A stretch of 64,000 nucleotides of DNA from Escherichia phage ES12. A model generated the notes under the pieces. The model worked only from the letters and a program-made list of their open reading frames with translations. It did not search any database and was not told where the DNA came from. Positions within the stretch are counted from its first letter, which is position 1; each line of letters opens with the position of its first letter. Shown here piece after piece: positions 2,989-60,682 of this stretch. Made by a program: the position numbers and the translations under genes. The stretch lies in the sequence record MN508614.1; one strand, given 5' to 3'.

Positions 2989-3275
2989 TAAAACCTCATC
3001 TGAAAACCGTGCGATTTAACATTACCGCCATTAATATCAGAACTATTAATTTCACGTGCAATTGAGGGATCAATGTCAATTTCGCGATTGAGTTTAGTGA
3101 TAGCTAAAGTATCGCGCCCATTTACAGTACGGAACTCTAAAGGGCAGACTACATTAACGTAGTTTTTAATCGATTCACTGGTAGGTTGCAAATGTGCAGG
3201 AAGGTCTTTAGGCGCCTTTGAGAAAACTACTTCGCAGAAGTTTTTACGGGTATCAAAATAAGTAGTCATAAACAT
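2988..3275 (-). CDS. hypothetical protein, ~95 aa
   Basis: ORF track ORF starts at TTG; trimmed to in-frame ATG at 3275 preceded by GAGGAAAA. Confidence 0.45.
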   Translation of the reverse strand: MFMTTYFDTRKNFCEVVFSKAPKDLPAHLQPTSESIKNYVNVVCPLEFRTVNGRDTLAITKLNREIDIDPSIAREINSSDINGGNVKSHGFQMRF

Positions 3276-3315
3276 AACATTTTCCTCAGTAAGGGGCCAA
3301 AGCCCCTCATTTATT

Positions 3316-3681
3316 TTAAATATCAAATTCGTTAAGAACTACATCAAAGATTGCTTCAAGATGCTCAGGTTTAGCTCTGTTACTCAGAATATGACGAATC
3401 CAAGTTTTAACCAAAAGCTTGCGATTAACGCCATTCCAGCAAGGATGAGTCCCTAAATCGCGTTCACGGAAATCATCATCCAGAGCGATTTTAAAGTTGG
3501 AACCTTCCATCGTGATTGAAACCGTGATACCGTTTTCAAATCGCATATAAACGTAATTAGGAGTCATATACTGCTCAATTTCGCATACTGATCCATTTTG
3601 ATGTTTCCAAAGGCAAATAGTATCAATAGAACCTGCAATACCATTAGAAACATATTTACGTTCAAAGTTGATGTAGTTCAT
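3316..3681 (-). CDS. hypothetical protein, 121 aa
   Basis: ORF track; ATG start. Confidence 0.55.
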   Translation of the reverse strand: MNYINFERKYVSNGIAGSIDTICLWKHQNGSVCEIEQYMTPNYVYMRFENGITVSITMEGSNFKIALDDDFRERDLGTHPCWNGVNRKLLVKTWIRHILSNRAKPEHLEAIFDVVLNEFDI

Positions 3682-3718
3682 TTTTATTCTCCAAGATGTT
3701 TAATTGCGGTACAGGTAT

Positions 3719-3747
3719 ATAATATCATATCCTGTACCAAAGTAAAC
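3719..3747 (-). promoter_or_regulatory. early sigma70-type promoter (GTTTAC -35, TATTAT -10)
   Basis: Reverse complement reads GTTTAC-N17-TATTAT just upstream of ORF 3316..3681. Confidence 0.5.
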
Positions 3748-3749
3748 AA

Positions 3750-4082
3750 TTATTTTACTACTTTCCAATGCTGCATGTCAAGTTTACCAACTTTTTTCAT
3801 CTTCTCAATTAAGCGTTCGGCACGTTGGCGAGCTGTAACATAATACCATTCACCTAATTCATTTTGTTCAATTTTTCCAACGATTACTGTATTCAATTCA
3901 TAAATCCAACCAGTAAAGAAATTATGAACTTGAATTGTAAAGGTGAAATCTGTTCCCATACCTTCTGTTGTTTCTACTTCAATAATATCACCTTCAACTG
4001 CCATTAAGAACCACATAGTTTCATCATATTTACCATTGAAGCATTTAGTTTTAACTGCAGCGTTCAGATTAATCGTTTTCAT
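3750..4082 (-). CDS. hypothetical protein, 110 aa
   Basis: ORF track; ATG start. Confidence 0.55.
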   Translation of the reverse strand: MKTINLNAAVKTKCFNGKYDETMWFLMAVEGDIIEVETTEGMGTDFTFTIQVHNFFTGWIYELNTVIVGKIEQNELGEWYYVTARQRAERLIEKMKKVGKLDMQHWKVVK

Positions 4083-7018: not shown

Positions 7019-7251
7019 AGTACGCCATACACCCTTTGTGCTTCAACTAATCCATCAAAATCCAGTTTAAGATGCGATATTTGATCGCCATCACCTGGAT
7101 TCACAATTACTAATACTGAACGAGGAGTTTCGGTAATAACACGAACCGACGTTTCAGGAAATCGTTCAGAAACCTTATTTACCAATTCTTGAGCAAATAG
7201 TTTAACTTTTTCTTGGAATTCTTTAACAGTAATTGGTTTTTCGCTTAGCAT
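7015..7251 (-). CDS. hypothetical protein, 78 aa
   Basis: ORF track; ATG start. Confidence 0.5.
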   Translation of the reverse strand: MLSEKPITVKEFQEKVKLFAQELVNKVSERFPETSVRVITETPRSVLVIVNPGDGDQISHLKLDFDGLVEAQRVYGVL

Positions 7252-7772
7252 GTTGATCCTAGCTCCTTACTTTCAACATTTTTAACTAATTTGACAGAAA
7301 CTAATTCAGCATCTTGGGTAATCATTACCGGACCTTCTTCATGCTCTTCAAGATATTCTAGAGCTTTCTTTTTAGCTTCTTCCTTCGTATCAGTTTGAGC
7401 ATAGATATAGAACATACAACCAGTAATACCTACTACTTTCCACTTAATTTCTTTATCAGTTTTAATTTCAAATTTACTTACAGAATCATCTTTTTGAACT
7501 TCTTCGAAAAAAGAATATTCTAACATATAAGCAATTGAAAATAACGGGCTAACTTTATAGGATTCACCCATTACATCAACAGCTTTATACCAACAATCAT
7601 CAATTTCACGTTTAATGCTAATAACATTTTTCGCAGGATCTATTTTTACTTTAAATGAATTTTCCCCAATAAACTGGGCAATTCGTTTATTAGCCCCGCA
7701 AGTTTCATTAAAAATATCTTTATATCCAGCTTTAAAGCGATAAACCTTATCTTCTTCAAACCATTCGCTCAT
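7245..7772 (-). CDS. hypothetical protein, 175 aa
   Basis: ORF track; ATG start. Confidence 0.55.
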   Translation of the reverse strand: MSEWFEEDKVYRFKAGYKDIFNETCGANKRIAQFIGENSFKVKIDPAKNVISIKREIDDCWYKAVDVMGESYKVSPLFSIAYMLEYSFFEEVQKDDSVSKFEIKTDKEIKWKVVGITGCMFYIYAQTDTKEEAKKKALEYLEEHEEGPVMITQDAELVSVKLVKNVESKELGSTC

Positions 7773-8313: not shown

Positions 8314-9721
<1,408 letters not shown>

Positions 9722-9725
<4 letters not shown>

Positions 9726-11156: not shown

Positions 11157-12744
<1,588 letters not shown>

Positions 12745-12771
12745 AATAAAATGGGCCTTGCGGCCCACTCC

Positions 12772-13950
12772 TTAAAAGTATTTTTTAAAACTCATCATAA
12801 CTTTATCATCAACATCATTATCAATCTGTGCAACAAGATAAGATGACAGTTCTACTTCTTGTGGCGCTGATTGAACATTATCAGAATTAAGATATTCACG
12901 AATCCAAGGATATGGATGTTTAACCGGAGCATCGGTAATTGGGCATGGAAGACCACACTGTTTCATACGAGATACAGTTAAGTAATCAATAAAGCTCCAC
13001 ATGCTATTTGTATTTAATCCAGGAACATCGCCATCTTTAAATAAATGAACTGCCCAATCTTTTTCTTGGCGGTTAACTTCCATGAAAATATCAACTGCTT
13101 CTTGCTCGCACTCTTGAGCAATTTTAACCCATTCATCGCCATCAGTGCCAAGTTGAAGTTGACGAATAATATATTGGGTGCCTTTAAGGTGAAGCTGCTC
13201 ATCACGAGCAATGAACTTCATAATCTTGGCATTACCTTCCATGATTTCCATGTTCTTATGGAAGTTAAAGGTACATGCGAAAGATACATAAAAACGAATA
13301 GCTTCTAAGGCATTAATAACGTGCAAACAGAGGTAAAGAGATTTCATTAACTCACGCTTCCAATATGTCTCATGCTCAATAGCATCTTCAATAACGTCTT
13401 CGTCTGCATTAATTTCTTTTTGGTATTCGATATCAGCTTTAGCGTTTTCCCAATAACGAGTTTTAATCAGAACATCATCATAATAACGTCCAATGGATTC
13501 AGCACGTTTCATAATAGCTTCATCTAATACAATCTCATCAAATACCTTTGACGGATCAGTATAAAGATTTCGCATGATATGAGTGTATGAACGACTGTGA
13601 ATAGTTTCACTAAAAGTCCATGTAGCAACCCATGTATCAAGGCTTGGGTCTGAAATTAATGACATAAGTACAGCAGACGGCGCACGACCCTGAATGCTAT
13701 CCAAAAGTGATTGATACTTCAAGTTGTTAGTAAAAATATTTTGCTGATACTGAGGAAGCTTATTAAACTGTGCAGCATCCATCATTAAGTTTACTTCTTC
13801 CGGGCGCCAGAAAAATGATAAGGACTTTTCTGTAAGTTCTTCAAATACTCGATGCCGTTGAATATCATAACGCGCAATACCAAGACCTGAACCAAAAAAC
13901 ATAGGTTCTTTTAAAACATCAACTGGATTTGTATTAAAAACTGTGCTCAT
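12772..13950 (-). CDS. nrdB: ribonucleotide reductase small subunit, uninterrupted 392-aa ORF
   Basis: Continuous ORF with RNR R2 features; no intron in this phage. Confidence 0.95.
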   Translation of the reverse strand: MSTVFNTNPVDVLKEPMFFGSGLGIARYDIQRHRVFEELTEKSLSFFWRPEEVNLMMDAAQFNKLPQYQQNIFTNNLKYQSLLDSIQGRAPSAVLMSLISDPSLDTWVATWTFSETIHSRSYTHIMRNLYTDPSKVFDEIVLDEAIMKRAESIGRYYDDVLIKTRYWENAKADIEYQKEINADEDVIEDAIEHETYWKRELMKSLYLCLHVINALEAIRFYVSFACTFNFHKNMEIMEGNAKIMKFIARDEQLHLKGTQYIIRQLQLGTDGDEWVKIAQECEQEAVDIFMEVNRQEKDWAVHLFKDGDVPGLNTNSMWSFIDYLTVSRMKQCGLPCPITDAPVKHPYPWIREYLNSDNVQSAPQEVELSSYLVAQIDNDVDDKVMMSFKKYF

Positions 13951-14001
13951 AAATTTTCCGCTTAGTTAATAGTTGGTGACTCGTCCATGAGTCAAATTAT
14001 A

Positions 14002-16266
14002 TCATAATTTACAGGATGAACAATCTTCAGCTTTTGGAGTTTCTATTTCATAATCATCAGTACCAGAACCATCACGGGTATTATGATAATAGAAATTTTT
14101 AATGCCATAATACCATCCGTATAGCATGTCATCAATCATTATTGACATTGGAACCTTTCCTTTTGGAAAAATCTGCGGGTCATAGTATGTATTCGCTGAA
14201 GCTGATTGACATACCCATTTCAGCATAATAGCTACCTGCGTAAGATAAGGTTTATTACCTTTCTTAGCTAATTTCCATGTATAATCATAGAGGTCTATGT
14301 TATGCTCAATATTGGGCACGACTTGATTAAAGGAGCCCTCTTTTGATTCTTTAACAGAGACTGGTCCACGTGGAGGCTCGATACCGTTTGTACTGTTAGA
14401 AACTTGGGAAGATGACTCACATGGCATAAGTGCTGATAATGTGCTATTACGGATGCCAAAGAGCTTAAGGTCTTCCCGCAGCGACGACCAGTCACAAACG
14501 TATTTTGGAGCTGCGATTTGGTCAATCTTTTTATTGTACCAGTCGATAGGTAATTCGCCTCGAGACCAACGAGTGTCTGAATAATATTCGCAAGGTCCTT
14601 TTTCTTTGGCGAGCTTAATGGATGCTTTAATGAGCCCATACTGTAATCTCTCAAATAGTTCATGTGTTAAATCGTTAGCATCTTCATAAGAAGCAAAGTT
14701 ACTTGCCAGCCAAGCTGCATAGTTGGTAACACCTACACCGAGGTTACGGCGCTTTTTAGCTTTTTCTGCTTCAGGAACTGGATATCCTTGGTAATCCAAA
14801 AGATTATCAAGAGCACGAACTTGAACTTCTGCCAATTCATTAATTTTATCTTGGTCTTGCCAGTCAAAATTATCTAGTACGAATGCAGAGAGAGTACACA
14901 ATCCAATTTCAGCATCAGGACTATTCACATCATTTGTTGGAATAGCAATTTCACAACACAAGTTACTCTGACGAATAGGCGCCTTTTCACGAATAAACGG
15001 AGTATAGTTATTCGTATTATCAATGAACTGCACATAAATCCTTGCGGTTCCTGAACGTTCAGTCATGAGCAATTCAAATAGTTCACGGGCTTTAATACGC
15101 TTTTTACGAATATTAGGGTCTTTTTCTGCTGCTTCGTATAATTCACGGAAACGGTTTTGGTCTTTAAAATAAGAATAATAAAGCTCGCCACCCATTTCAT
15201 GTGGACTGAACAAAGTAATGTAATCGTTCTTTCCGAATCGTTCCATCATCAAATCATTCAGTTGAACACCATAATCCATATGACGAATGCGGTTTTCTTC
15301 TACGCCTTTGTTATTTTTCAAAACGAGAAGATTTTCAACTTCCAAATGCCAAATAGGATAATAAGCAGTAGCAGCGCCGCCACGAATTCCGCCCTGTGAG
15401 CATGATTTAACAGCAGTCTGAAAATGTTTCCAAAAAGGAATAACACCAGTATGACGCACTTCACCCATGCCAATCTTAGAACCTTCGGCACGAATCATAC
15501 CAACGTTAATACCAATTCCAGCACGTTTGGAGATATATTCAACAATTGAAGCAGAAGCCTTATTAATAGACTTTAATGAATCACCTGCCTCAATAACAAC
15601 GCATGAACTAAACTGCCGAGTTGGAGTACGGCAACCAGCCATAATAGGAGTTGGTAATGAAATCTGTCGAGTAGATACTGCTTCATAAAAACGAATAACA
15701 TGTTTTAATCTATCAACAGGTTCATCTTGATGCAATGCCATTCCAATAGTCATAAATGCAAACTGTGGAGTTTCATAAATTTGACCAGTGGTTTTATCTT
15801 TAACTAGATATTTTTCTTTTAATTGCATCGCCCCGGAATAAGTAAATTCCATATCCCGCTCGTGCTTAATTTTTGATTCTAAAAATGTAATTTCTTCTGC
15901 TGAATATTTTGACAATAATTCAGGGTCATATTTACCTTCATTTACACAGTAAGAAATATGGTCAATAAATGAACGTGGTTCATACTGCCCATAAACATGC
16001 TTACGAAGAGCAAACATTAAACAGCGTGCAGCTACATATTGATAATCAGGTTCTTCAACCGAAATAGAATTCGCAGCGGCCTTAATGACAATAGTCTGAA
16101 TATCATCAGTTGTCATTCCATCACGGAGATAAGATTTAATATTTTCATATAATTCATAAGGATCTACTGATGTTCCCTCAGCTGCCCAAGATAAAACTTT
16201 AATAATTTTTTGCGGGTCAAAGCTCTGAGAAACACCACTACTTTTGATAACATTAATTAATTGCAT
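14002..16266 (-). CDS. nrdA: ribonucleotide reductase large subunit, 754 aa
   Basis: 754-aa [34 protein letters not shown]... ATP-cone N-terminus, active-site Cys motifs, C-terminal CxxC. Confidence 0.95.
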   Translation of the reverse strand: MQLINVIKSSGVSQSFDPQKIIKVLSWAAEGTSVDPYELYENIKSYLRDGMTTDDIQTIVIKAAANSISVEEPDYQYVAARCLMFALRKHVYGQYEPRSFIDHISYCVNEGKYDPELLSKYSAEEITFLESKIKHERDMEFTYSGAMQLKEKYLVKDKTTGQIYETPQFAFMTIGMALHQDEPVDRLKHVIRFYEAVSTRQISLPTPIMAGCRTPTRQFSSCVVIEAGDSLKSINKASASIVEYISKRAGIGINVGMIRAEGSKIGMGEVRHTGVIPFWKHFQTAVKSCSQGGIRGGAATAYYPIWHLEVENLLVLKNNKGVEENRIRHMDYGVQLNDLMMERFGKNDYITLFSPHEMGGELYYSYFKDQNRFRELYEAAEKDPNIRKKRIKARELFELLMTERSGTARIYVQFIDNTNNYTPFIREKAPIRQSNLCCEIAIPTNDVNSPDAEIGLCTLSAFVLDNFDWQDQDKINELAEVQVRALDNLLDYQGYPVPEAEKAKKRRNLGVGVTNYAAWLASNFASYEDANDLTHELFERLQYGLIKASIKLAKEKGPCEYYSDTRWSRGELPIDWYNKKIDQIAAPKYVCDWSSLREDLKLFGIRNSTLSALMPCESSSQVSNSTNGIEPPRGPVSVKESKEGSFNQVVPNIEHNIDLYDYTWKLAKKGNKPYLTQVAIMLKWVCQSASANTYYDPQIFPKGKVPMSIMIDDMLYGWYYGIKNFYYHNTRDGSGTDDYEIETPKAEDCSSCKL

Positions 16267-16583
16267 AAGTCCTCAACTTGAAAATCGTCTTTAAACAATC
16301 GGTTAACTATATGAGCTATTATATCACCATGACACGGCTTTGGTTTACATGTGCATCCTAGCCTCATTCCACGTAAAGGCTCTAAATGTGCTTTAGTTAT
16401 TTCTCTGGATTTAATTCGACGTATAAAATCTTTTTTGAATAATTCAATGGCAGCCTCCCGGCTGCCAGCATCTTTACCGACGTAATTTCCCCAAAATGTA
16501 CCACGGTGAATATTAACATCAAAGTCGGATTTGTATTTATTCACTACCCGACATAGACGGCCCGCGCGGTGATAATTCGGCAT
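16257..16583 (-). CDS. hypothetical protein, 108 aa
   Basis: ORF track; ATG start; position of T4 nrdA.1. Confidence 0.55.
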
Positions 16584-16800: not shown

Positions 16801-17657
16801 ATTGCCATTTTCCCTTTAATTGCTGGATGCGATTCATAATTTTCAAGGATAAAATCTTTCGGTTTCATGTATTCAGTTAACCAGTAAAGCTGTGTTTCGG
16901 TGTCACAATTTCCAAACTCTATAGGCCAATCAATTTTAAGTTCACATAGTTCTTTAGGCTCACGACGTAAAATTTCTTTACATTGCTCAGTATGATTCAT
17001 ATAGATGTGAGTATTACCACCAGAAAATATCAAATCTCCTGGGATAAGATTACACATCTTAGCCACAATATGCGTCAAGGCAGCGTACGAGGCAATGTTG
17101 AATGGCAATCCCAAGAAAACATCTACACTTCTTTGGTACCATTGTAAATCAAGATAACCATTACGCACATTAAACTGATAGAACATATGACAGGGCGGTA
17201 ATGCCATTTGATTGATTTCAGCTGGATTCCATGCTGAAACGATTTGACGTCGATCAGTTGGTAATTTTTTAATACGATCAATAGTTTCAACTAATTGATC
17301 CACACCGCCGAAATCACGCCATTGTTTACCGTATATAGGACCAAGTTCACCACTATGATATCCTAGGTCTTTAGCCTGGTTTTCATAGTTATCGTCCCAA
17401 ATAGTTTTACCTTGAATAAGACTACCATGTGTGCGAAGACGTAAATCATTAACATTGGTAGAACCGGAAATAAACCATAGAAGCTCAGCAATGCATGCAT
17501 TCCATGCAAGCTTCTTAGTTGTTACCGCAGGAAAACCTTTAGTTAAATCCCAACGTAATTTAGTACCGAACAAAGCAATTGTTCCTGTGCCTGTTCGGTC
17601 ATCGGTTTCATAGCCATTTTCAAAAATGTCTTTAATTAAATCTTGGTATTGTTTCAT
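16797..17657 (-). CDS. td: thymidylate synthase, uninterrupted 286-aa ORF
   Basis: [26 protein letters not shown]... with active-site PPCH motif; continuous, no intron. Confidence 0.95.
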
Positions 17658-17702: not shown

Positions 17703-18062
17703 TCAATACGGTTTAGCATCAAATTTTCTCTCAATTTCAGGCGTGAAATATAATTCTTTACCGCGTTTGGAAAAGCGACCAATAATATGATAATTATTCT
17801 CATCAAACGTGATATTACCAATATCCATAGCTTTCAACCAAATATCGATATTTCTATCCAGCTTTATGTCAAAATTCCAATACAGAGAACTATTACCGAA
17901 AATACTGCAAGCGGATTCAGTGAAACAACTGCTATAAATCTTGTCTTTAGGAACTACTAATTGATAGACACCTTTAATAAACTGAGGACCCTGCCACTTT
18001 GGCTGTTTCGTGTCTTTTTCTAATAGAATAGGGTAATAATTAAAATTCATATTTTCCGCCAC
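17703..18062 (-). CDS. hypothetical protein, 115-119 aa, inserted between frd and td
   Basis: ORF track (GTG at 18062; first ATG at 18050); no recognisable motifs. Confidence 0.5.
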   Translation of the reverse strand: MAENMNFNYYPILLEKDTKQPKWQGPQFIKGVYQLVVPKDKIYSSCFTESACSIFGNSSLYWNFDIKLDRNIDIWLKAMDIGNITFDENNYHIIGRFSKRGKELYFTPEIERKFDAKPY

Positions 18063-18070
18063 GTGTTATT

Positions 18071-18900
<830 letters not shown>

Positions 18901-19262: not shown

Positions 19263-19292
19263 ATAGTATCACACTACTACCCTTCTGTAAAC
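19263..19292 (-). promoter_or_regulatory. early promoter (GTTTAC -35, TACTAT -10)
   Basis: Reverse complement GTTTAC-N18-TACTAT. Confidence 0.45.
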
Positions 19293-19657
19293 TACTTTTT
19301 GAAAGTTTTTCGCAAAAGTTCAATGATTTCATCTACATTGTTTTCGTCAACAATGCAGTGAATTTTTGTTACGCCAGAAACTTTGTCTTTGACTTCATCT
19401 TCTTCAGAAGTCGGTTCTTTATACTCACGAAAACAATGAAATTCGTCTTCACAAACGTTAAAGTAAAAATGCTTTCCATTTGCGCATTCAATGTGTTTTA
19501 TTACTCTAAATCCATCAACAAAGAAAGCTTCTTTAACTTCAAACCATCCGCCATTTTCTTGAATAATTTTAACTATTGCTGAATTAGAACGTGGGCGATA
19601 ATTAATAAATGTATCAATAAGTCTTGGAACAAGTTCATACTTTTTACCGATATACAT
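19292..19657 (-). CDS. hypothetical protein, 121 aa
   Basis: ORF track; ATG start. Confidence 0.5.
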   Translation of the reverse strand: MYIGKKYELVPRLIDTFINYRPRSNSAIVKIIQENGGWFEVKEAFFVDGFRVIKHIECANGKHFYFNVCEDEFHCFREYKEPTSEEDEVKDKVSGVTKIHCIVDENNVDEIIELLRKTFKK

Positions 19658-19701
19658 TATGTTTTCCTCATTTTAACGGGGCTGTAATAGCCCCTTGATA
19701 A

Positions 19702-19929
19702 TTATTGTTCAATCAATCCCATGTAAAATTCTGCGTCTTCAGAATCCATACCATCACAATATTCATTAGCCATAAAGCGGGTGAGGTCTTCAAGAGGACC
19801 TTCAATAACGATTTGAATACTCCAAAACTTAGAATCTTGCACGCTTGTGATACTAAGTTCAGGATAACGATTACGAATAATTTCTTCGATATATTCAAAA
19901 TCAACGATGTCAATATCAACTTTAGCCAT
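19702..19929 (-). CDS. hypothetical acidic protein, ~75 aa
   Basis: ORF track ORF trimmed to ATG at 19929 preceded by AAAGAGGAAAA; the 5' extension would overlap the promoter. Confidence 0.45.
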
Positions 19930-19972
19930 ATTATTTTCCTCTTTAATCATCAGCAGTATTGCCGATAGTTGT

Positions 19973-20002
19973 ATAGTACCATGGAAGGACAAGGATGTAA
20001 AC
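19973..20002 (-). promoter_or_regulatory. early promoter (GTTTAC -35, TACTAT -10), part of a repeated promoter-terminator cassette
   Basis: Reverse complement GTTTAC-N18-TACTAT; flanking sequence nearly identical to 37245..37337. Confidence 0.5.
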
Positions 20003-20020
20003 CGTTTTGTGAAAAAATTT

Positions 20021-20051
20021 TTGAAATAAAAAGGGGACCTCTAGGGTCCCC
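20021..20051 (-). terminator. gene 32 rho-independent terminator
   Basis: ggggacc-tcta-gggtcccc hairpin followed on minus strand by a U-run, just downstream of gene 32 stop. Confidence 0.65.
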
Positions 20052-20073
20052 AATTAATTAGTAATATAATCTA

Positions 20074-20979
20074 TTAAAGGTCATTCAAAAGGTCATCCAG
20101 GTCTGTGTCATCAGCACTAGATGAACTGCCAGAGCTTGAGCTCATAAAATCATCTTCAGTTTTTGTATTGAAGTCATCAACATTGAATGCATCCAAATCA
20201 TCAGCAACTTTATCAGCTTTCTTAGCAGCAGTTGCAGCAGCACCGCCCATCACAGCAGTTCCCATAACTTGACCGAATTTAGTGCTCAGTTCTTCAAACG
20301 ATTTGAATTTATCTTTAGAAGTCATTTCAGAAAGGTCAACCATTTGTTCGAACAGTTCTTTCTGGAAAGATTCATCGTCAATGTTTGGAATCGCAGATTG
20401 ATTCAGGAATTTAGATTCGTCGTAGTTACTAAATCCAGAAACCTGTTTAACTTTCAGTACAAAGTTAGCACCTTCCCACGGACAAGTTACATCAACCGGA
20501 GTTTCACCCATTTCAACATCAACCGCAATCATCGCGTTGATTTTATCCCAGATTTTCTTACCGAAACGATATTTAAATACTTTACCTTCATTTTCTGGAG
20601 CAGCTGGGTCTTTTACAACAAGAATATTAGCCCAGTAAGAAGTTTTACGTTTAACAAGACTGTACTCTTTATTGTCAGTGTTGTACAGATCATTTTTACT
20701 GATGTACTGACATACTGGACAAGAATCGTAATCACCATGGGTAGATGAACATGTTTCAATATACCATTTACCATTTTTCTTGAAACCGTGATTTACAAGA
20801 ATTGCGAATGGTGCTTGTTCATCATTTTTAGACGGAAGAAAACGAATTACTGCTTGACCGTTACCCGCATTATCGAGTTTCAGTTTCCACTCGCCTTTAT
20901 CTTCAGAAGAAAAACCTTTATTGCCATTCAGTTTAGCCATTTGTGCAGCAAGTTCAGCAGTAGATTTACGTTTAAACAT
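20074..20979 (-). CDS. 32: single-stranded DNA-binding protein, 301 aa
   Basis: [49 protein letters not shown]... with acidic Ser/Asp-rich C-terminus = T4 gp32. Confidence 0.95.
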
Positions 20980-21038
20980 TTTATTTCCTTTTTAATTTAA
21001 TTTAATTTAATTAACAGTTGGTGCTATGACACTTTACC

Positions 21039-21671
21039 TCATAGCTGGCATAATTCGCAATACTCTGGGTCTTCGAGAGGTATCCAACCTGAGTTGAAAT
21101 ACTTTACCATCGATTTAGCAGTTGTATCAGTTATATTTATATTACCTTTAACTCTTCGCCATCCAGGAGTTTTACCGTACAGATTAGAGGATAATAATAA
21201 CACATAATTCTCGTAAGCAATATGAGATAATTTCCAAGACTCTATATTAGCTCGTGATGTTTTCCAAGGTCTAAAATCGTCACGGTTCATATAATTAGCC
21301 AATCTCATATGCTCTCTAACTTCCGGGTCTTTGGCTGGATGAGTTTCACCACTCACACCAAATCCACCACCAGCATATACCAGATTAAAATAGTCTGGAT
21401 TATCTCTGGCATTTACTTCAAGTTGGTATTTTCGTTCTGCTTCAATAACATCCAAGTCATCATCAATTTGAATTATTTTAACGCTCGGTTTTTGAAGCAT
21501 TAGCGCATTCAAAAATCTTTTTTGTTTACATGAGCTCCAGTATTCCTTTCCGGAAGAGTCATATATTATTCCATTCTCAAATGAGCAATTTAATTTACTA
21601 CCGATATAGTAGTATGGCGGAGTCTTATTTTTGACACGGTCTTCAAATGTAAACCAATATACTATATTCAT
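21039..21671 (-). CDS. segG: GIY-YIG family homing-endonuclease-like protein, 210 aa (segG-like position)
   Basis: N-terminal IVYWF...YYYIGS resembles GIY-YIG; located between 32 and 59 where T4 carries segG. Confidence 0.5.
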   Translation of the reverse strand: MNIVYWFTFEDRVKNKTPPYYYIGSKLNCSFENGIIYDSSGKEYWSSCKQKRFLNALMLQKPSVKIIQIDDDLDVIEAERKYQLEVNARDNPDYFNLVYAGGGFGVSGETHPAKDPEVREHMRLANYMNRDDFRPWKTSRANIESWKLSHIAYENYVLLLSSNLYGKTPGWRRVKGNINITDTTAKSMVKYFNSGWIPLEDPEYCELCQL

Positions 21672-21672
21672 A

Positions 21673-22326
21673 TCAATACTTACAAGATTTCACAGTTTCA
21701 ATGAAAACACTTTTAGCTTTCTGTGAATCAATATTTAAAATTTTTCTATAAGCCTTTAACTTTATAGAATAATTATTCCAGACTAAATTATCAGTCTGTT
21801 CATCATGTTTATCAATTATATTTAAAAACGAATCAAGCAAGATAAACGTTTCAAACGAAATTATATTCGATTGAAGTAGTTTAAAAATATAACTTGATTG
21901 AACTTTTGGATTATACTCAAAGATTTCTTTAAAAGCAGAAACTTCAACTTTTTTACTAAAATAATAAATGTTGCGAATATCTTCTTCAAACTTAAATTTA
22001 ATTTGCTTTAAGCGTCCGATATATTCACGATAAAACACAAGTGCATCAGCGTCAGAGATGTCACCAATCCAAGCATCCTGGTTGGCAACCAAATTGCTTA
22101 TAAAGATTAAAGCAAGTTCCTTTAATTTATATTTTTCTGATAACTTCTGGAAAAAATACTTATCCCTTCGCTTTTGATAAGCGGCATCAGACACCCGCAT
22201 GCACCAATTATACTTAATAACATCATACTTTCCATTCATATGTTGTTTTATCATTAAGTATAATTTATAAACTGATTTACCATCAATGTATCTTTCACCA
22301 CCAGCAGGCATGCGGAGTTTAATCAT
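21673..22326 (-). CDS. 59: helicase loader, 217 aa
   Basis: MIKLRMPAGGERYIDGKSVYKLYLMIKQHMNGKYDVIKYNW... = T4 gp59. Confidence 0.9.
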   Translation of the reverse strand: MIKLRMPAGGERYIDGKSVYKLYLMIKQHMNGKYDVIKYNWCMRVSDAAYQKRRDKYFFQKLSEKYKLKELALIFISNLVANQDAWIGDISDADALVFYREYIGRLKQIKFKFEEDIRNIYYFSKKVEVSAFKEIFEYNPKVQSSYIFKLLQSNIISFETFILLDSFLNIIDKHDEQTDNLVWNNYSIKLKAYRKILNIDSQKAKSVFIETVKSCKY

Positions 22327-22661
22327 AGTAGAAAATCTAATGTATTAGTTTTTTCACAACGAACAACAGAAGGACGTAAAAGATTTTCGTCAATAGCTTC
22401 TGACTGAATTTTTTCAATTATACCCGAAGGAATAAATTTAGCAAATTGAGTTTCAGGAATAGAATTTTCTTCTAAGAATGCTGTTGTAGCTTCGAGATAA
22501 CTCATTCCAAACTCTTCTACCATTTTTTCAATAATAAATCCATTTTCTTGGCGGTCAAGAAGCTTTGCTATTTCATCCTTTTCTTTCTTAATTGAAAGTT
22601 CTTTTTCTGAAAGACCGGTCTCATCGACCGGACGAATATCATTTAGAGAAAACTGTGTCAT
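22323..22661 (-). CDS. 33: late-transcription co-activator, 112 aa
   Basis: From ATG at 22661: MTQFSLNDIRPVDETGLSEKELSIKKEKDEIAKLLD...; ORF track start was TTG. Confidence 0.85.
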   Translation of the reverse strand: MTQFSLNDIRPVDETGLSEKELSIKKEKDEIAKLLDRQENGFIIEKMVEEFGMSYLEATTAFLEENSIPETQFAKFIPSGIIEKIQSEAIDENLLRPSVVRCEKTNTLDFLL

Positions 22662-29653: not shown

Positions 29654-32620
29654 ATGGCTACTTTAAAACAAATACAATTTAAAAGAAGCAAAATTGCAGG
29701 TCAACGTCCTGCAGCTTCAGTATTAGCCGAAGGTGAATTGGCTATAAACTTAAAAGATAAAACAATTTTCACAAAAGATGACTCAGGTAGTGTTATAGAA
29801 TTAGGTTTAAAATATGGAGGAACTATAAATGGATCTTTAGAGGTTACAGAAAATATAACTGGAACTTTAATTGGAAATTCTAGTACAGCTACTAAATTGC
29901 AAACACCTAGGAAAATTAATGGTATATCTTTTGATGGATCAAAGGACATTACACTAACTCCATCTGATATAAATGTAAATAGTACAACGTTTATAAAAAA
30001 TAACGGCGAATTACCTGTTGATGCTAATTTAGATGAGTATGGGCCTGTTGAAGAATATCTTGGAGTTTGGTCGAAAGCAACTTCAACCAACGCTCAACCA
30101 GCAAATAAATTTCCAGAAGAAAATGCTGTAGGTGTTCTAGAAGTATTTGTGGCCGGTCAATTTGCTGGTACTCAGAGATATACAACTAGATACGGAAATG
30201 TTTATATTCGTTCCTTGACTGCTACATGGAACGGAGTAAACGGTCCGTGGAGTGCGTGGCGAAATATTCAATCTGGTACTCGTCCACTGTCAACAACGAT
30301 TGATCTTAATGATCTAGGAGGCGCTGAACACCTTGGTTTGTGGCGAAATAGTTCAAATTCCATTGCTACCTTTGACAGAAATTTCCCAGAAGAAGGATCG
30401 TCCGCTCAAGGACTTTTAGAAGTATATGAAGGTGGAAACTATTCTCGCACACAGAGATATACGACCAGATTTGGTGTTGTTTATACTCGTTGTCTTGCTG
30501 CTGCGTGGGATGCTTCTGCGCCTAAATGGGGACCTTGGCAACAAGTCGGTAATGTCACACCGGCGACTTTCTATGACGGAGATCTGAATGATTTTAAAAC
30601 TCCTGGGTTATATAATATTTTAGGCACTGATGCCGTTATTAACTGTCCTACCGGTGAAGGTTTGCCGACTGTTATTGTTGGTTTGCTGGAAGTTAAACAG
30701 CGTGCTTCTGGCGGTGCTATTTTCCAAAAATTTACTACTGCCGGAACGGGTGCAACTACCCGCGATCGTATTTTTGAGCGCGCATATACCGGCGGTGTTT
30801 GGGGTGCATGGAACGAAGTATATACATCTTATTCTCTGCCAATTACTTTGGGTATGGGTGGTATTAAAGCTCAATTAGCGGAGTTAGATTGGCAAACCTT
30901 TGATTTTGTCCCTGGTAGTATGTTTAGCGTTCCTTTGAATAAAATAAAGAACATGCCAGCAAATATGGATTGGGGGACGATTGATGGAAACTTGGTTATG
31001 TTTTCTGTCGGTCCTAGTGAACATACTAGCACAGGGCGCACTGTTCAGGTTTGGCGCGGTACTGTATCCCAGACAAACTACCGTTATTTTGTCGTTCGTG
31101 TATTCGGTAATTCAGGAAATAGAACTTGCACAGTTCGTCGTGTTGTTCTTGAAGATGGTCGCCACAAATGGACAGCGCAGCAAGATTTTAATGGCGCAGT
31201 TAACTTCGGTGCTGCAACCACGTTTAAATCAACTACAACTTTTAATACAGAAGTTAAATTTCGCGCATTGAATGCGTTCCGCCTGTATGGCGGAAAATTT
31301 GGTACATTTTTACGTAATGATGGAGAGAGTCTTTATATTCTTTCCACCGACGAAGATGATCAAGATGGAAACTTTAATACAAATAGACCTTTCCGTTATG
31401 AATTAAGAACTGGTGATGTTACTTTGGGTGGTGCTAGTGGTGCTAACGTTTTAAAATTAAAACGTGATTCTCTCACCGCATTTTTTGGCGGTGATATTAA
31501 CATTAAAGGCACGATGACTTTTGACGCCGGACGTTTAGGATCACGAGATTATTTTAAATTTAACCATTGGGGTGATAGTAATAATGCGCGTGATAATATC
31601 ATCCAGTTAGAAGACAGCAAAGGCGCTCATTTTTCCACTGAACGTACTTTAGCGACTGGTGCAATTAAGACTAAATTTTTTGGTGAAATTGAATCCGATG
31701 GTAAATTGGTTATTAAACGTCCGGGTGATTCTATTGTATTATCAACAACTGCTAGTAATTCTTTGCATATTCGCGGTGATATAGACGGGACTGGTAACTG
31801 GTATATTGGTAAAGGTGATGCTGATAATGGATTAGCGTTCTATAGTTATGCTACTAATGCTGGTGTATACATTACAAACGCAGGAGATATCTCGCTAAGT
31901 CCAAAGGGTGCCGAAATGGCTCAGGTCAATAACGTTCGATTATATGTTCATGGTGAACGTTGGACCGCTAGTCAACCAGGTGATTGGGGTAGTCAGTGGC
32001 AAGTGGAAGCGCCAATATTCGTCGATCATGGTTATGTTGGACCAGATAGCTATTATCCAATTATTAAAGGAAGAAGTGTAATCACCAATCAAGGGTTTGT
32101 AACTGCCGTCGATCTTGGTATTCGTCGTGTCAATAACAATTGGGGACAAGCAATTATTCGTGTTGGATCTGCGGAGGCATCGCCAGCGGCTGGACACCCT
32201 AACGCGATATTTGAATTTCATTACGACGGTACTTTCTATTCTCCTGGTAATGGTAACTTTAACGATGTGTATATTCGTTCCGATGGTCGTCTTAAGATTA
32301 ATAAAAAAGAGCTAGAAAACGGAGCACTTGAAAAAGTATGCCGACTGAAAGTTTATATTTACGATAAGGTTAAGTCTATTAAAGACCGTAGTGTTATTAA
32401 ACGCGAAGTTGGTATTATTGCTCAGGACCTTGAAAAGGAATTACCGGAAGCTGTGTCTAAAGTTGAAGTTGATGGTTCTGATGTTCTGACAATTTCTAAC
32501 TCCGCTGTAAATGCTCTTTTAATTAAGGCTATCCAAGAAATGAGCGAAGAAATTAAAGAATTAAAAACGCCTTTCTTCACTAAAATTGCTCGCAAAATTA
32601 GTAATTATTTTAAATTCTAA
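29654..32620 (+). CDS. 37: long tail fibre distal subunit, 988 aa, with C-terminal chaperone-like domain
   Basis: N-terminus [35 protein letters not shown] = gp37; C-terminus (...[24 protein letters not shown]...) resembles an intramolecular chaperone domain. Confidence 0.9.
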
Positions 32621-32652
32621 CAACAAGGGGCTTTGCCCCTTTGGAGAAAATT

Positions 32653-33453
32653 ATGGCAGTAGTTGGTGTTCCTGGTTGGATTGGAAGTTCATCCGTAAAT
32701 GAAACAGGACAACGATGGATGAGTCAAGCGGCTGGTCAATTAAGATTGGGTATTCCTTGCTGGATGAGTCAATTTGCAGGTCGCTCAAGAGAAATTATTC
32801 ACACGCTTGGAGCAGACCATAACTTCAATGGTCAATGGTTCCGAGATAGATGTTTTGAGGCAGGTAGTGCACCTATAGTGTTTAATATCACAGGAAATTT
32901 GGTATCATATTCTAGAGATGTTCCTTTATTCTTCATGTATGGAGATACACCAAATGAATATGTTCAGTTGAATATTAGCGGTGGAGCTCATATGTGGGGC
33001 AGAGGTGGACAAGGTGGATGGACTCATTCTGGTGGAGATGGTAATGGTCAACAGGGTGGACATTGTATTCAAAATGACATTGGTGGTCGGTTAAGAATTA
33101 ATAATGGTGGAGTAATTTGTGGCGGAGGAGGCGGTGGCGGCGGTATCGCTTATCGTCCTCACTCTGGTGCAAACTGGCAAGATATTGGTGGCGGTGGAGG
33201 AAGACCGTTTGGCCCAGGAGGTGGCGGTGGTTATTCAGGAGGTGCTGCTTCTTATGATGGCCCAGGAGGTGGTTATAATTATGGTAATGCTCACTCTGGT
33301 CAAGGTGGCGATGCTGGAGGAAATGGACAAAATGCCTGGCATGATGGTGGTAAAGTTCTAAAAGTTGGCGCTGGCGGGGCGGCAGGTTATGCTGTAATAG
33401 GGTCTGCTCCAACATGGCAAAATGTTGGAATAATATATGGTCCAAGAGTATAA
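32653..33453 (+). CDS. 38: T2-type tail fibre adhesin with glycine-rich motifs, 266 aa
   Basis: From ATG at 32653 (ORF track start is TTG): [13 protein letters not shown]...; four poly-Gly islands separating variable segments. Confidence 0.85.
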
Positions 33454-33484
33454 TTTTGAATAAATACCCTTAAAAGGAGGGTCT

Positions 33485-36977: not shown

Positions 36978-37205
36978 TTACTTAATGTTCAGATTACGAA
37001 CTTCGATTTCGTCTTCATGGGCAAAATCAAACTGTTTGAATTCTGTGTCACCTTTAAATTTAAAAATCATTGTGAAGAAAGTCAGAACACCAGGTTTTTC
37101 TTCACGAACTCCACAGATATCATATTCAATACCATCTACAACCAGTTTGTTAGCAGTCAGAGCATTTTTAGCTTTAACGATTTCGTTTTCGATTTTAAAT
37201 TTCAT
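36978..37205 (-). CDS. hypothetical protein, 75 aa
   Basis: ORF track; ATG start. Confidence 0.5.
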   Translation of the reverse strand: MKFKIENEIVKAKNALTANKLVVDGIEYDICGVREEKPGVLTFFTMIFKFKGDTEFKQFDFAHEDEIEVRNLNIK

Positions 37206-40608: not shown

Positions 40609-40872
40609 TCATAGTTCAATCTCAACGATTTCCAAGTGTTTTTGTTTTATTGCCTTTTTAACACAATCATGGACTAAATATGACCATGAATCATTATATT
40701 CTCCATTAACTAATCGTTGGAGATCTTCACGTGATGATAAGTAAGGTTGATCTGATTCCCATTTTGATAAAAATACTGCAGTAAAAATATCTCCTTCATC
40801 TGTAGTTGAAGTCGTAAATGCAATAAATTCACCGGTAATTTTATGTTTAACGTAAAAGAACTTAAATTTCAT
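40609..40872 (-). CDS. hypothetical protein, 87 aa
   Basis: ORF track; ATG start; leader identical to that of the 37-aa ORF. Confidence 0.5.
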   Translation of the reverse strand: MKFKFFYVKHKITGEFIAFTTSTTDEGDIFTAVFLSKWESDQPYLSSREDLQRLVNGEYNDSWSYLVHDCVKKAIKQKHLEIVEIEL

Positions 40873-45181: not shown

Positions 45182-45211
45182 ATTATACCACATCCTTGTG
45201 GTAAAGTAAAC
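45182..45211 (-). promoter_or_regulatory. early promoter upstream of the rIIA operon (GTTTAC -35, TATAAT -10)
   Basis: Reverse complement GTTTAC-N18-TATAAT. Confidence 0.5.
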
Positions 45212-47028
45212 TACTGGCTCATCCATTCTTTACGAAGGTCAGCATTATCTCCCATGAGCATTTCAAAAAGCTCTTTCCAATTCTCAGGAAGTTTAACAAC
45301 ATCATATACTGGGTTTTGAATCATCTCACGATATTCAGATTTTTCCAAAGAGCCAAGTCCCTTAATATAACGGATGCTATGTTTAGGTAGAGCATCTTTA
45401 GCACTCTCATATTCAGCGACTGTATAAAACCATTCTTGTTTTTTACCGACCTGAGCGATGATTACAGGAGTTTTGACGAAGCGAATTCTTCCTTGTTCAA
45501 ACAGTTCTGGCCAATTACTAAAAAATCCGAGCAGAGAAGGATAAATGCTTCCTAGACCATCATGGTCAGCATCAGTCATAATAGCGATATTATGATAATT
45601 CAAGTTTTCAGCTTTTTCACCGAGAACTAATCCAGTGATTGCGCAAATATCAAACAGTTCTTTGTTTTTAAGCATGTCAGCATATGACATACCCCAACTG
45701 TTGAGAACTTTACCACGTAATGGATAACCACCGTGAAGTTCTTTATCACGAACATCAATAAGATATCCGATAGCCGAATCACCCTCAGTCAAGAAAAGAG
45801 TAGTATCAGCATCTTTACCACAAAGATTCGCTTTAATATGTTTATGAACCTTAGCTTTAGAAGCCTTTTTAGCTGCTTTAGTTTCTGCTGCTTTTTCTGC
45901 CGCTAATTTACGAGCCAAAGCAGCTTCAATAATCGGCATTAGAATTGCTTCATTATTTAGAATAGCACGTGAAATCTTTTTAGCATCAAGTTGAATATGA
46001 CTACGGATTTCGCCAAATGGAGAAGTCAAACGCTCTTTAGTTTGAGAATCAAATCGCATGTTTTTCATATCACGGACAAACATAACGATAGTCAAACATT
46101 CTTTAACGCGTGCTTTAGTCACATCAATTTTGAACTTACGTTTGATTTGTGGAATAAGGTCTTCACAAATATCATCCATAACACAGTCAATGTGATGGCC
46201 ACCATTCTTAGTGTGAATGTTATTCACATAAGTTAATTGACGAAAACCATCCGGTGAACGACCAACCGCAATAGAGCAATTTTCTTGTTCTTGAACAATA
46301 GCATGCTCATCATATTGGCGTGCATATTTCTTAAAATTGCCCTGAACCTTTTTACCATTAAAGGTAAATTGAATATCAGGATAAACTACTGCAAGTGTCT
46401 GGAGACGATCTAGTGTAATGTCAAGATAAACTTGGGACAGCTCATTAGTTTCAAATGACATAAAATCAGGAATGAAAGTAACACGAGTTCCTTTCCATTT
46501 TCCAGGAATAGTTTCCCATGATTTATTTTCCATGCCATTTGAACAACGAACTACAATATTATTTTGACCATCACCAGTTTCACCAACAAACATCACAGAA
46601 AAAATGTTTGTCAAACTAGAACCAACACCATTCATACCGCCAGTGACACGTTCTTTATCATCGCCAAAGTTACCACCTGCTTTTGGAATAGTCCATGCAG
46701 CAACAGGACCAGGAATTTCTTCACCGGTAGGTGTTTTAACCATCGCCTGCGGAATACCACGACCGTTATCTTCAACTGTTACTTGATTGTTTTTAATAGT
46801 AACATTAATTTTATTTGCGAATTTAAACTTAGTACGAATACCTTCATCTACTGAGTTATCGATAATTTCATCAATAAGCTTAACAAGACCAGGTACATAC
46901 TGAACACTTTCCCATTTACCAAACAGAAAGCGCTCATGCATTTCATTAGCAGAAGAGCCAATATACATGCCGCTACGCTTTTTGATATGTTCAATATCGC
47001 TCAGAATTTTAATTTCATTCTTAATCAT
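45211..47028 (-). CDS. 39: DNA topoisomerase II large (GyrB-like) subunit, unsplit 605 aa
   Basis: From ATG at 47028: MIKNEIKILSDIEHIKKRSGMYIGSS...; C-terminal part (...NIAIMTDADHDGLGSIYPSLLGFFSNWPELFEQGRIRFVKTP...) is the segment encoded separately as gene 60 in T4. Confidence 0.95.
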   Translation of the reverse strand: MIKNEIKILSDIEHIKKRSGMYIGSSANEMHERFLFGKWESVQYVPGLVKLIDEIIDNSVDEGIRTKFKFANKINVTIKNNQVTVEDNGRGIPQAMVKTPTGEEIPGPVAAWTIPKAGGNFGDDKERVTGGMNGVGSSLTNIFSVMFVGETGDGQNNIVVRCSNGMENKSWETIPGKWKGTRVTFIPDFMSFETNELSQVYLDITLDRLQTLAVVYPDIQFTFNGKKVQGNFKKYARQYDEHAIVQEQENCSIAVGRSPDGFRQLTYVNNIHTKNGGHHIDCVMDDICEDLIPQIKRKFKIDVTKARVKECLTIVMFVRDMKNMRFDSQTKERLTSPFGEIRSHIQLDAKKISRAILNNEAILMPIIEAALARKLAAEKAAETKAAKKASKAKVHKHIKANLCGKDADTTLFLTEGDSAIGYLIDVRDKELHGGYPLRGKVLNSWGMSYADMLKNKELFDICAITGLVLGEKAENLNYHNIAIMTDADHDGLGSIYPSLLGFFSNWPELFEQGRIRFVKTPVIIAQVGKKQEWFYTVAEYESAKDALPKHSIRYIKGLGSLEKSEYREMIQNPVYDVVKLPENWKELFEMLMGDNADLRKEWMSQ

Positions 47029-47097
47029 CACTTATCCTCGTTTGGTTTCGGGAATATTATACTCCGGTAATCATAAAGCTAAAGGCCCGAAGGCCTT

Positions 47098-47363: not shown

Positions 47364-47735
47364 TCACTCAAATTTAATGGCTTGAAGGAGACTAATAACT
47401 CTCAAGCGACTTCTTTCATCTTTAACTGTAAAAGAAAGAGGGTCACCAGATTTCATAGTAATAGTACATTCAAAATCAAAATCTTCGGAAACTTCTTTGA
47501 AGAAGTCAAATTCTTCATCATAAATTAGAACATTACTCTGACAACTATGAAGAATTTTTCCATCATTTCCAGATGCTGTACTAATCATTGTAACATTATG
47601 ACCTTTCATATCTTCAACGATAAATTCACTAGTCAATATTACAGCATTAATAGAACTATTCCTATTACTAGCAGAAAGTAGATATTTCTGTTCTTCACCT
47701 TCACGAATGCGATATTTCTTACCGATTTTAAACAT
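47364..47735 (-). CDS. hypothetical protein, 123 aa
   Basis: ORF track; ATG start. Confidence 0.5.
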   Translation of the reverse strand: MFKIGKKYRIREGEEQKYLLSASNRNSSINAVILTSEFIVEDMKGHNVTMISTASGNDGKILHSCQSNVLIYDEEFDFFKEVSEDFDFECTITMKSGDPLSFTVKDERSRLRVISLLQAIKFE

Positions 47736-51249: not shown

Positions 51250-51502
51250 TAATAATCGCCTTATAAAGATAGCTAATTTCGCCTAAAATATAATCATTGA
51301 TTGTAACAGTTTTCACTTCACCGCAAAAGAATTCTAACGCAATCAAATCTCGTTCAATTTCTTCCAATTGAAGCATTAACTTGCCTGATTCAATTTTCAC
51401 GTTTTTGCGATTTTTACTATAAGCTATTTCATAAATTTCGCTCACTTTATCTTGAAGCAGATAAAACTGGTCTTTAGTTATTTCCACGAATAGCTTCCTC
51501 AA
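51242..51502 (-). CDS. hypothetical protein, 81-86 aa (start uncertain; likely GTG at 51487 after GAGGAA)
   Basis: ORF track start is TTG; no early ATG. Confidence 0.35.
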   Translation of the reverse strand: MRKLFVEITKDQFYLLQDKVSEIYEIAYSKNRKNVKIESGKLMLQLEEIERDLIALEFFCGEVKTVTINDYILGEISYLYKAIIND

Positions 51503-51734
51503 ATTTAATCAGCAGCTTACAGACACTTTCATCTAATGTAATTACCGTGTCTGTATTACTATGATATGATTGTTTTTCAATTCGTTTAATTGCTAGTATA
51601 GTATCACTTATAAGATTAAGTTTATAAAGGAGCTCAGCTCCTGTTACCATAACACTGAGGTTATCTTGCTTATCAGTATGCTTCTTTATACCATCTATTA
51701 GACGATTTAAATATTTTGAATTGATGTTAATCAT
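51474..51734 (-). CDS. hypothetical protein, 86 aa
   Basis: ORF track; ATG start. Confidence 0.5.
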   Translation of the reverse strand: MININSKYLNRLIDGIKKHTDKQDNLSVMVTGAELLYKLNLISDTILAIKRIEKQSYHSNTDTVITLDESVCKLLIKFEEAIRGNN

Positions 51735-57941: not shown

Positions 57942-58151
57942 TTAAATTACATGATTATTTATAATAAATTCTCGCGGAACGTTAAAATACCCGATTTTAG
58001 TTAATATAACAACATCGCCGTTAATAATTACCGGAGAATAATCTTCTGGAGCATTAAATTTCCAATGGGCTCTAATATTATATCCATCAGAACCAAATGC
58101 TCGCGTAGCTGGTCTCCCAGCTTTTTGCCATGCGTAGAAATCAAATTTCAT
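57942..58151 (-). CDS. hypothetical protein, 69 aa
   Basis: ORF track; ATG start. Confidence 0.5.
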   Translation of the reverse strand: MKFDFYAWQKAGRPATRAFGSDGYNIRAHWKFNAPEDYSPVIINGDVVILTKIGYFNVPREFIINNHVI

Positions 58152-58342
58152 TTTGAATGCTCTATAATTAATTTTAAAGCTTCTTCACTGACAAAAATTT
58201 CGTCAGGACCTTCTATAACTTCAACCATACGAAGTTGATTAGTTAAGAGCTCACATACGAGCTCCTTGTTATAATCTTTAAATAGCTGGTCAATACGTTT
58301 CTTGTGGGCTTTCTTAAGCTGGCGTTTATTTAAACGAGCCAT
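58148..58342 (-). CDS. hypothetical protein, 64 aa
   Basis: ORF track; ATG start. Confidence 0.5.
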   Translation of the reverse strand: MARLNKRQLKKAHKKRIDQLFKDYNKELVCELLTNQLRMVEVIEGPDEIFVSEEALKLIIEHSK

Positions 58343-58860: not shown

Positions 58861-58894
58861 TATTTTTCCTTTCAATTCATGGGTTAGTAGATTA

Positions 58895-58918
58895 ATTATA
58901 CAATAAATATATAAAGCA
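58895..58918 (-). promoter_or_regulatory. MotA-dependent middle promoter for gene 56
   Basis: Minus-strand TTGCTTTA (MotA box) followed 11 nt later by TATAAT, ~35 nt upstream of gene 56 ATG. Confidence 0.55.
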
Positions 58919-58931
58919 ATAAGGAGGACAT

Positions 58932-59132
58932 ATGGTACAAAAATTAATGGCACTTGTTAATGCCATCAAAGGTAATAAAAAGCGTATAGCTTTTACTATT
59001 TCTGCTATGGTAGGAATTTTACTCTGGAACTTTATTTTATCACCTGTTGCAATTGCACATGGTATTAATATTCCAGTAGTTACTCTTGATACATTCGTAG
59101 ATTTAGCATTTGCTTTGGTTGGGTTAATTTAA
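58932..59132 (+). CDS. small two-helix membrane protein, 66 aa, plus strand
   Basis: ATG preceded by AAGGAGG at ideal spacing; MVQKLMALVNAIKGNKKRIAFTISAMVGILLWNFILSPVAIAHG... hydrophobic; convergent with gene 61. Confidence 0.5.
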   Translation: MVQKLMALVNAIKGNKKRIAFTISAMVGILLWNFILSPVAIAHGINIPVVTLDTFVDLAFALVGLI

Positions 59133-60325: not shown

Positions 60326-60682
60326 TTAACCTCTATTCATAAAAGCATTAAAAATTTGGTCATCAATAGATGGAATAGCAACTTTTTCTGCATCATTTAG
60401 CAAATCATTAATTTCATCAGATAGCATAACACATGTACCTTTATTTCCTGTAATTGTTACTGCGCAATTACGAACGTTTTCTTTATTAAATTTTAGGTTA
60501 ATATTTTCGTAATGAAAATCCTTTAATGCTGAATATATTTTTAAAATAAAATTGTCTTTTACTACAATAAACCCAACCTCACTATTAAAACGTGGTTCAT
60601 GGAAACTGTAATAAACCTTTTCATCTATAAAATCGTATGAAATTTTTTCCATTTTTAAATATGAAAATTCAGAACTATACAT
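60326..60682 (-). CDS. hypothetical protein, 118 aa
   Basis: ORF track; ATG start. Confidence 0.5.
   Translation of the reverse strand: MYSSEFSYLKMEKISYDFIDEKVYYSFHEPRFNSEVGFIVVKDNFILKIYSALKDFHYENINLKFNKENVRNCAVTITGNKGTCVMLSDEINDLLNDAEKVAIPSIDDQIFNAFMNRG

Follow-up and report, generated by a model that had tools for sequence, protein, structure and literature searches.

What is the 210-aa ORF that lies between genes 32 and 59 of Escherichia phage ES12, and how did it come to be there? An initial annotation, made from a 64,000-nucleotide stretch of this genome (sequence record MN508614.1; hereafter the window, meaning the whole stretch analysed), had taken it for a segG-like gene of the GIY-YIG type.

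Position and identity of the ORF between genes 32 and 59

The ORF was found where the initial annotation had placed it, with the following arrangement:

20074 to 20979, minus strand: gene 32 (ssDNA-binding protein), 301 aa, downstream neighbour named after the T4 annotation
21039 to 21671, minus strand: segG CDS, 210 aa plus TGA stop, ATG-initiated in the ORF list
21673 to 22326, minus strand: gene 59 (helicase loader), 217 aa, upstream neighbour named after the T4 annotation

The protein begins MNIVYWFTFEDRVKNKTPPYYYIGSK, in agreement with the N-terminal motif described earlier, and the T4 reference has SegG at the same place (147909-148541, between genes 32 and 59), as the initial annotation stated. 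The segG start lies 2 nt past the gene 59 stop codon, leaving no intergenic space for a promoter. Megablast of positions 20074-22326 against phage genomes returned Escherichia phage ES26 at 100% and many Tequatrovirus genomes at 97-99%, in which the genes at these positions carry the annotations ssDNA-binding protein, homing endonuclease, and helicase loader. Judged by its sequence, the window is that of a Tequatrovirus (T4-like phage). Alignment with T4 SegG (NP_049855), the check proposed for this ORF, gave 210 identical residues out of 210 (E = 7e-165). At the DNA level, there was a single, synonymous difference from T4 (position 21573), while the neighbouring genes differed from T4 at more positions. 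The protein was also matched over its full length by PHROG 7504, labelled 'homing endonuclease' (E = 1e-133). Given the complete protein identity, the one-nucleotide difference and the PHROG 7504 match, the ORF is segG itself and not merely a relative. The identification was correct but ordinary, as sequence comparison assigns the ORF to the already characterised segG of T4. In T4, segG is free-standing and active, encodes a GIY-YIG enzyme, is inserted between genes 32 and 59, and has gene 32 as its target (PMC2988022, Table 1). In crosses of T4 with T2, SegG causes exclusion of T2 gene 32 markers, and segG is inherited at high frequency (PMC2330249; PMC2988022).

Conserved residues and predicted fold of SegG

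We modelled SegG with AlphaFold2 from an alignment of homologues (mean pLDDT 91). The model comprises an alpha/beta domain (residues 1 to ~100) joined through a disordered, low-confidence linker (104-107) to a C-terminal domain that is helical; the two domains correspond to two regions of the gene:

21363 to 21671, minus strand: N-terminal catalytic domain with predicted GIY-YIG fold, residues ~1-103
21042 to 21335, minus strand: C-terminal helical domain, residues ~113-210, presumed to bind DNA

The homologue alignment contained 27 sequences with identity down to 28%. Residues R12, P19, Y22, I23, G24, S25, K26, C29, Y44, S47, E79, N96, and A100 were invariant, and Y5 was nearly so. Motif A is present, with I3-V4-Y5 and Y22-I23-G24 conserved in 26-27 of the 27 homologues; the spacer from GIY to YIG is 16 residues long instead of the canonical 10-11, and YIG is followed by an inserted beta-hairpin. 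The reference residues of the GIY-YIG enzyme I-TevI are Arg R27 (motif B), Glu E75 (motif D), and Asn N90 (motif E). A search for the catalytic Arg, Glu, and Asn, also proposed with the initial annotation, recovered the Glu (E79) and the Asn (N96) in all 27 sequences, but was less clear for the Arg: R52, which opens helix 51-59, occurs in 20 of 27 homologues, and R12, present in all 27, falls between the strands of GIY and of YIG and hence between motifs. Either R52 or R12 may be the SegG counterpart of I-TevI R27.

With hhalign, the alignment against T4 SegA to SegF plus I-TevI reached an E-value of 0.005 with a probability of only 7%, placing YIG on YIG, E79 on the Seg Glu, and N96 on an invariant Asn. 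I-TevI ranked first in Foldseek at a non-significant E-value of 1.4. Pfam returned no hit to the SegG protein at E-values up to 10 (PF01541 included), NCBIfam returned none, and none of 29 database homologues of SegG had a precomputed Pfam domain. The 27-homologue profile found nothing relevant among PDB sequences; its only match, an isochorismatase (E = 1), was dismissed as chance.

Taken by themselves, the empty Pfam, NCBIfam, and PDB sequence-profile searches, the non-significant Foldseek result, the atypical motif spacing, and the uncertain Arg counterpart would suit an ORF of some other family, possibly not a nuclease at all. We regard this as extremely improbable. The missing Pfam match reflects the limited sensitivity of the profile and is no argument against the fold. 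Assignment to a non-nuclease family, the outcome that had been named as contrary to the initial annotation, did not occur; PHROG gave 'homing endonuclease', and Pfam and NCBIfam gave no family. We conclude that the predicted fold and the Tyr/Tyr/Glu/Asn residues agree with the definition of the GIY-YIG family. The absent profile matches and atypical spacing mark the SegG family as a divergent GIY-YIG branch and leave the identity of the ORF with T4 SegG unaffected. Because Pfam and NCBIfam miss this branch, pipelines relying on them would label its members hypothetical.

Distribution and insertion boundaries

Of the 141 phage records in which segG DNA was detected, 116 showed ≥99% identity; the 32/59 locus matched 498 records at ≥95%. 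An evenly spaced sample of these loci contained 25 without segG and 10 with it. Most of the segG-less loci (22 of 25) had a 1662-nt form, and the segG-bearing form measured 2253 nt. The distribution of segG among relatives is patchy. Alignment with eight empty-site loci delimited the insertion:

~21051 to 21672, minus strand: inserted element proper

At the empty sites of segG-less relatives, the element is replaced by an unrelated spacer of ~30-40 nt, which in the segG-less phage fPS-65 is annotated with a predicted middle promoter. At this 32/59 site, other T4-like phages harbour more distant relatives of SegG (34-64% identity). As intronless homing implies, segG is intergenic, is present or absent among near-identical genomes, and has clean empty sites.

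A gene 32 allele linked to segG

We then compared 17 loci, namely the window, T4, six others with intact segG, one in which segG is broken, and eight that lack it. A block of polymorphisms in gene 32 followed the state of segG:

20752 to 20928, minus strand: gene 32, 5' part; block of polymorphisms linked to intact segG (17-locus comparison)

A single allele (20752/3, a 3-nt indel at 20913, 20923, and 20927/8) is common to all eight loci with intact segG, and the alternative occurs in seven of the eight that lack the gene. The segG-associated gp32 has N18, one Gly fewer, and T76, for a length of 301 aa, while the alternative protein of 302 aa has A18 in place of N18 and reads AKLAGNKGGFSS...N77. 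Gene 32 sites at or below 20737 and gene 59 sites at or above 21682 assort freely among the same phages, so the linked tract covers ~300 nt on the gene 32 side only. Such a one-sided tract is the pattern expected from a break in gene 32 and its repair through segG; since the 17 loci are few and not independent, the linkage is only suggestive. Two phages were exceptions. Salmonella phage SG1 combines an empty site with the segG-type gene 32 allele, and Escherichia phage AugustSocin (MZ501052, 51537-53785) combines a frameshifted segG with the segG-less-type allele at 20913-20989. The AugustSocin segG is full-length and loses its frame after codon 21; it looks like a decaying homing endonuclease.

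The linkage could instead reflect shared ancestry, that is, a clonal haplotype and not co-conversion driven by homing. The small set of 17 phylogenetically non-independent loci leaves room for this, as does the number of records matching the gene 32 block of the window at ≥99% (116), which equals the segG count as a total from two sets that were not cross-tabulated. Polymorphisms just outside the block assort freely, so recombination among segG-bearing phages must be frequent, and yet the block stays with segG. Moreover, co-conversion from the gene 32 cleavage site has been reported (PMC2988022). Clonal descent thus appears rather unlikely. With homing as the preferred reading, the block at 20752-20928 is a candidate for a resistant target allele and a co-conversion tract. 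The cluster at 20913-20928, possibly together with 20752/3, may determine resistance or sensitivity to SegG, so that segG and the resistant allele would spread jointly, a tentative proposal that we place somewhat below even odds. If true, AugustSocin and SG1 would represent other stages of the homing-endonuclease life cycle. Liu et al. (2003) probably imply much of this proposal already. The segG-linked allele also provides a ready-made natural data set for co-conversion tracts.

Gene 32 regulatory signals within segG

A published review places both the middle and the late promoter of gene 32 within segG, with the transcript processed by RNase E, and describes segG itself as a promoter-less cassette transcribed from upstream; promoters embedded in this way favour retention of the element that hosts them (PMC2988022). 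In the window, we located the following signals:

21134 to 21141, minus strand: T4 late-promoter consensus TATAAATA inside segG, ~155 nt upstream of the gene 32 start (pattern search)
21475 to 21500, minus strand: candidate middle promoter in segG, MotA-box-like ATGCTTCA, 12-nt spacer, TAAAAT (sequence reading)
21023 to 21050, minus strand: gene 32 mRNA pseudoknot (translational operator), read from the sequence

Over the whole window, TATAAATA was found six times against 10 expected and is not enriched. Of the remaining five copies, four sit directly upstream of genes that are late or transcribed late (gene 34, 23897; gene 36, 28964; soc, 57956; gene 31 region, 5157), and the sixth is at 11693 on the plus strand. 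Position is what makes the copy at 21134-21141 a candidate late promoter, in agreement with the published account (PMC2988022). The ATGCTTCA and TAAAAT elements, read from 21500 to 21475, could form a middle promoter. A sigma-70 promoter scan of the locus found 9 promoters against 7.4 expected from shuffles, which is not an excess.

The pseudoknot consists of stems GCUAUGA/UCAUAGC and UGCC/GGUA. The 3' end of segG (UGC CAG CUA UGA, 21050..21039) supplies the 5' strands of both stems, and an overlap between the 5' strand of the gene 32 pseudoknot and the end of the segG frame has been published (PMC535899). An A/U-rich tract of UUAAA repeats follows, and then the gene 32 start at 20979. The pseudoknot sequence is shared with segG-less phages up to ~21048. 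No Rfam family matched positions 19900-22500 at E-values up to 1, the gene 32 pseudoknot being without a curated family. UUAAA repeats in the gene 32 5' UTR (20990..21019, minus strand) differ in number among near-identical phages: there is one more in the window than in T4, whereas there are fewer in several segG-bearing and all typical segG-less phages, and more in SG1.

These signals, by which we mean the embedded middle and late promoters, the pseudoknot 5' strand, and the RNase E site, suggest another reason for the presence of segG. The gene might be kept mainly as a carrier of gene 32 regulation, a domesticated remnant whose nuclease is irrelevant or decaying. The TATAAATA motif inside the ORF, the segG stop and last codons belonging to the pseudoknot, the retention favoured by embedded promoters (PMC2988022), and the frameshifted copy that AugustSocin retains at full length would all fit. 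However, the ORF is intact and identical to an enzyme active in T4, 116 of the 141 copies are nearly identical (≥99%), the catalytic residues are invariant, and the tight linkage to the gene 32 allele points to ongoing homing. A regulatory and a nuclease role are not mutually exclusive, and it is distinctly unlikely that the former is the main reason why segG is kept.

Other homing endonucleases and GIY-YIG proteins in the window

In a blastn map, the window aligns with T4 126198-168903 followed by 1-23069. T4 has six homing-endonuclease genes in this span, namely I-TevIII, mobE, I-TevI, segG, mobA, and segF, the segA site lying beyond the window end and outside the comparison. When all 15 T4 homing-endonuclease proteins were searched against the window with tblastn, only segG was found (E = 1e-145), and the next match was that of SegB to the segG locus itself (E = 0.09). 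The initial annotation had listed I-TevI, I-TevIII, mobE, and segF as absent, which is borne out by this search and by clean deletions relative to T4 on the blastn map; mobA is also absent from the window. The missing segments are:

T4 138457-139058, at window 13274-13277: nrdB intron
T4 139719-140420, at window 13951-14005: nrdB.1 and mobE
T4 143543-144565, at window 17105-17110: td intron
T4 2793-3911, at window 45546-45611: 60 / 60.1 / mobA region
T4 15610-16307, at window 57964-58378: segF

With one of the six T4 genes present and no non-T4 insert matching a family of this kind, segG stands as the sole homing-endonuclease candidate, as had been supposed, and the mosaic distribution of homing elements is apparent in that segG is kept and the other five T4 genes of the span are missing. 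Retention of one gene in six shows how easily they are gained and lost among near-identical phages. The window also encodes a second GIY-YIG nuclease:

12334 to 12768, minus strand: denA (endonuclease II), Pfam PF01541, 27.2 bits

Ten ORF regions foreign to T4 were considered as unrecognised homing endonucleases (7245..7772, 9405..9725, 17703..18062, 18655..18900, 36978..37205, 40609..40872, 47364..47735, 51474..51734, 57942..58342, and 60326..60682), and PHROG and Pfam identified none as such. The ORFs of all segments without T4 homology matched only unknown-function, goF-like, MotB-like, AdfA-like, small head-associated, or tail-fibre families.

Other features of the window were recorded in the course of this comparison. 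Gene 39 (45211..47031, minus strand) is an uninterrupted 606-aa ORF for the topoisomerase II large subunit (GyrB, HATPase, Toprim), and the T4 39 / mobA / 60.1 / 60 split with its gene 60 translational bypass is missing from the window. The segF position between soc and gene 56 (57942..58342, minus strand) is occupied by two short ORFs, one of 69 aa (Pfam DUF7422, PHROG 5773) and one of 64 aa (PHROG 5782), an arrangement presumably similar to that of T2. No counterpart of dam (T4 16846-17625) was found at 58861..59128, between gene 56 (58345-58860) and gene 61 (59129-60157), and T4 Dam had no tblastn match within the window; dam may lie elsewhere in the ES12 genome or be absent. At the T4 61.2 position, a 118-aa ORF (60326..60682, minus strand) matches Pfam AdfA (anti-DarT factor A) over the C-terminal half only (113-211 of 211), as a shortened or diverged anti-defence gene. 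Three ORFs on the minus strand, each an insertion relative to T4, belong to PHROGs of unknown function: 175 aa between cd.2 and cd.3 (7245..7772), with weak goF-like similarity, 106 aa between pseT and pseT.1 (9405..9725), and 119 aa between td and frd (17703..18062). Across the distal tail-fibre region (29809..33459, plus strand), which takes in gene 38 and the C-terminal portion of gene 37, nothing resembles T4 at the nucleotide level, and the 270-aa gp38 encoded there matches the adhesin-type PHROG 2056, which makes it a T2-type and not a T4-type gp38. Finally, the frd.2 region (19401..19700; ORF 19292..19657, minus strand) has ~120 differences from T4 in 300 nt within surroundings at 97-99%, a sharp local drop in identity that marks it as a recombinational mosaic segment.

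Proposed mode of spread

We estimate at about 96% the probability that the ORF is T4 segG, a free-standing GIY-YIG homing endonuclease gene that spreads by intronless homing with co-conversion. According to the model, SegG has two domains, a GIY-YIG nuclease domain at the N-terminus and, beyond a linker, a helical one at the C-terminus that would bind DNA. The gene has no intergenic promoter of its own and is read through upstream transcripts. Since promoters of gene 32, an essential gene, are embedded in segG, and the terminal codons of segG contribute to the pseudoknot of the gene 32 mRNA, precise loss of the element would be costly. In a mixed infection with a segG-less relative, SegG would cut gene 32 of the relative, and the break would be resected and then repaired by recombination from the segG-bearing genome. 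The recipient would thereby acquire segG together with the neighbouring 5' portion of gene 32, a case of intronless homing with co-conversion, and the genetic outcome would be localised marker exclusion. For ES12, cleavage, target gene, and marker exclusion are carried over by analogy from the identical T4 protein and should probably be the same; the linkage to the gene 32 allele supports them indirectly.

Comparison with known systems

I-TevI (catalytic domain, PDB 1LN0), the archetypal GIY-YIG enzyme of the T4 td intron, shares 15% identity with SegG and is intron-encoded, whereas SegG is free-standing. Its spacer has 10-11 residues, in contrast to the 16-residue spacer and post-YIG hairpin of SegG, which is invisible to PF01541. 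Unlike SegG, T4 endonuclease II (denA) degrades host cytosine-DNA and is a conserved core gene that is not mobile. The T4 genes segA to segF share the way of life of segG: they are intergenic, patchy, and spread by intronless homing, and their products, like SegG, cut within a neighbouring gene hundreds of bp from the insertion site. The profile similarity of the proteins is weak (hhalign E = 0.005; SegB tblastn E = 0.09), and SegG lacks the 'DGYMGSG' signature of SegA to SegE and has a family of its own, PHROG 7504. T4 SegG (gene 32.1, NP_049855), reportedly first described by Liu et al. in 2003 (J Mol Biol 334:13, as cited in PMC2988022 and PMC535899), shares with the ES12 gene its 32/59 insertion site, strand, and pseudoknot overlap. 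ES12 is without the five further homing-endonuclease genes that T4 has in this span. segG is a textbook case of intronless homing and of localised marker exclusion of T2 by T4. To this already known gene, the present analysis adds that domain libraries miss its branch of the GIY-YIG family and that public genomes show a segG-linked allele of gene 32.
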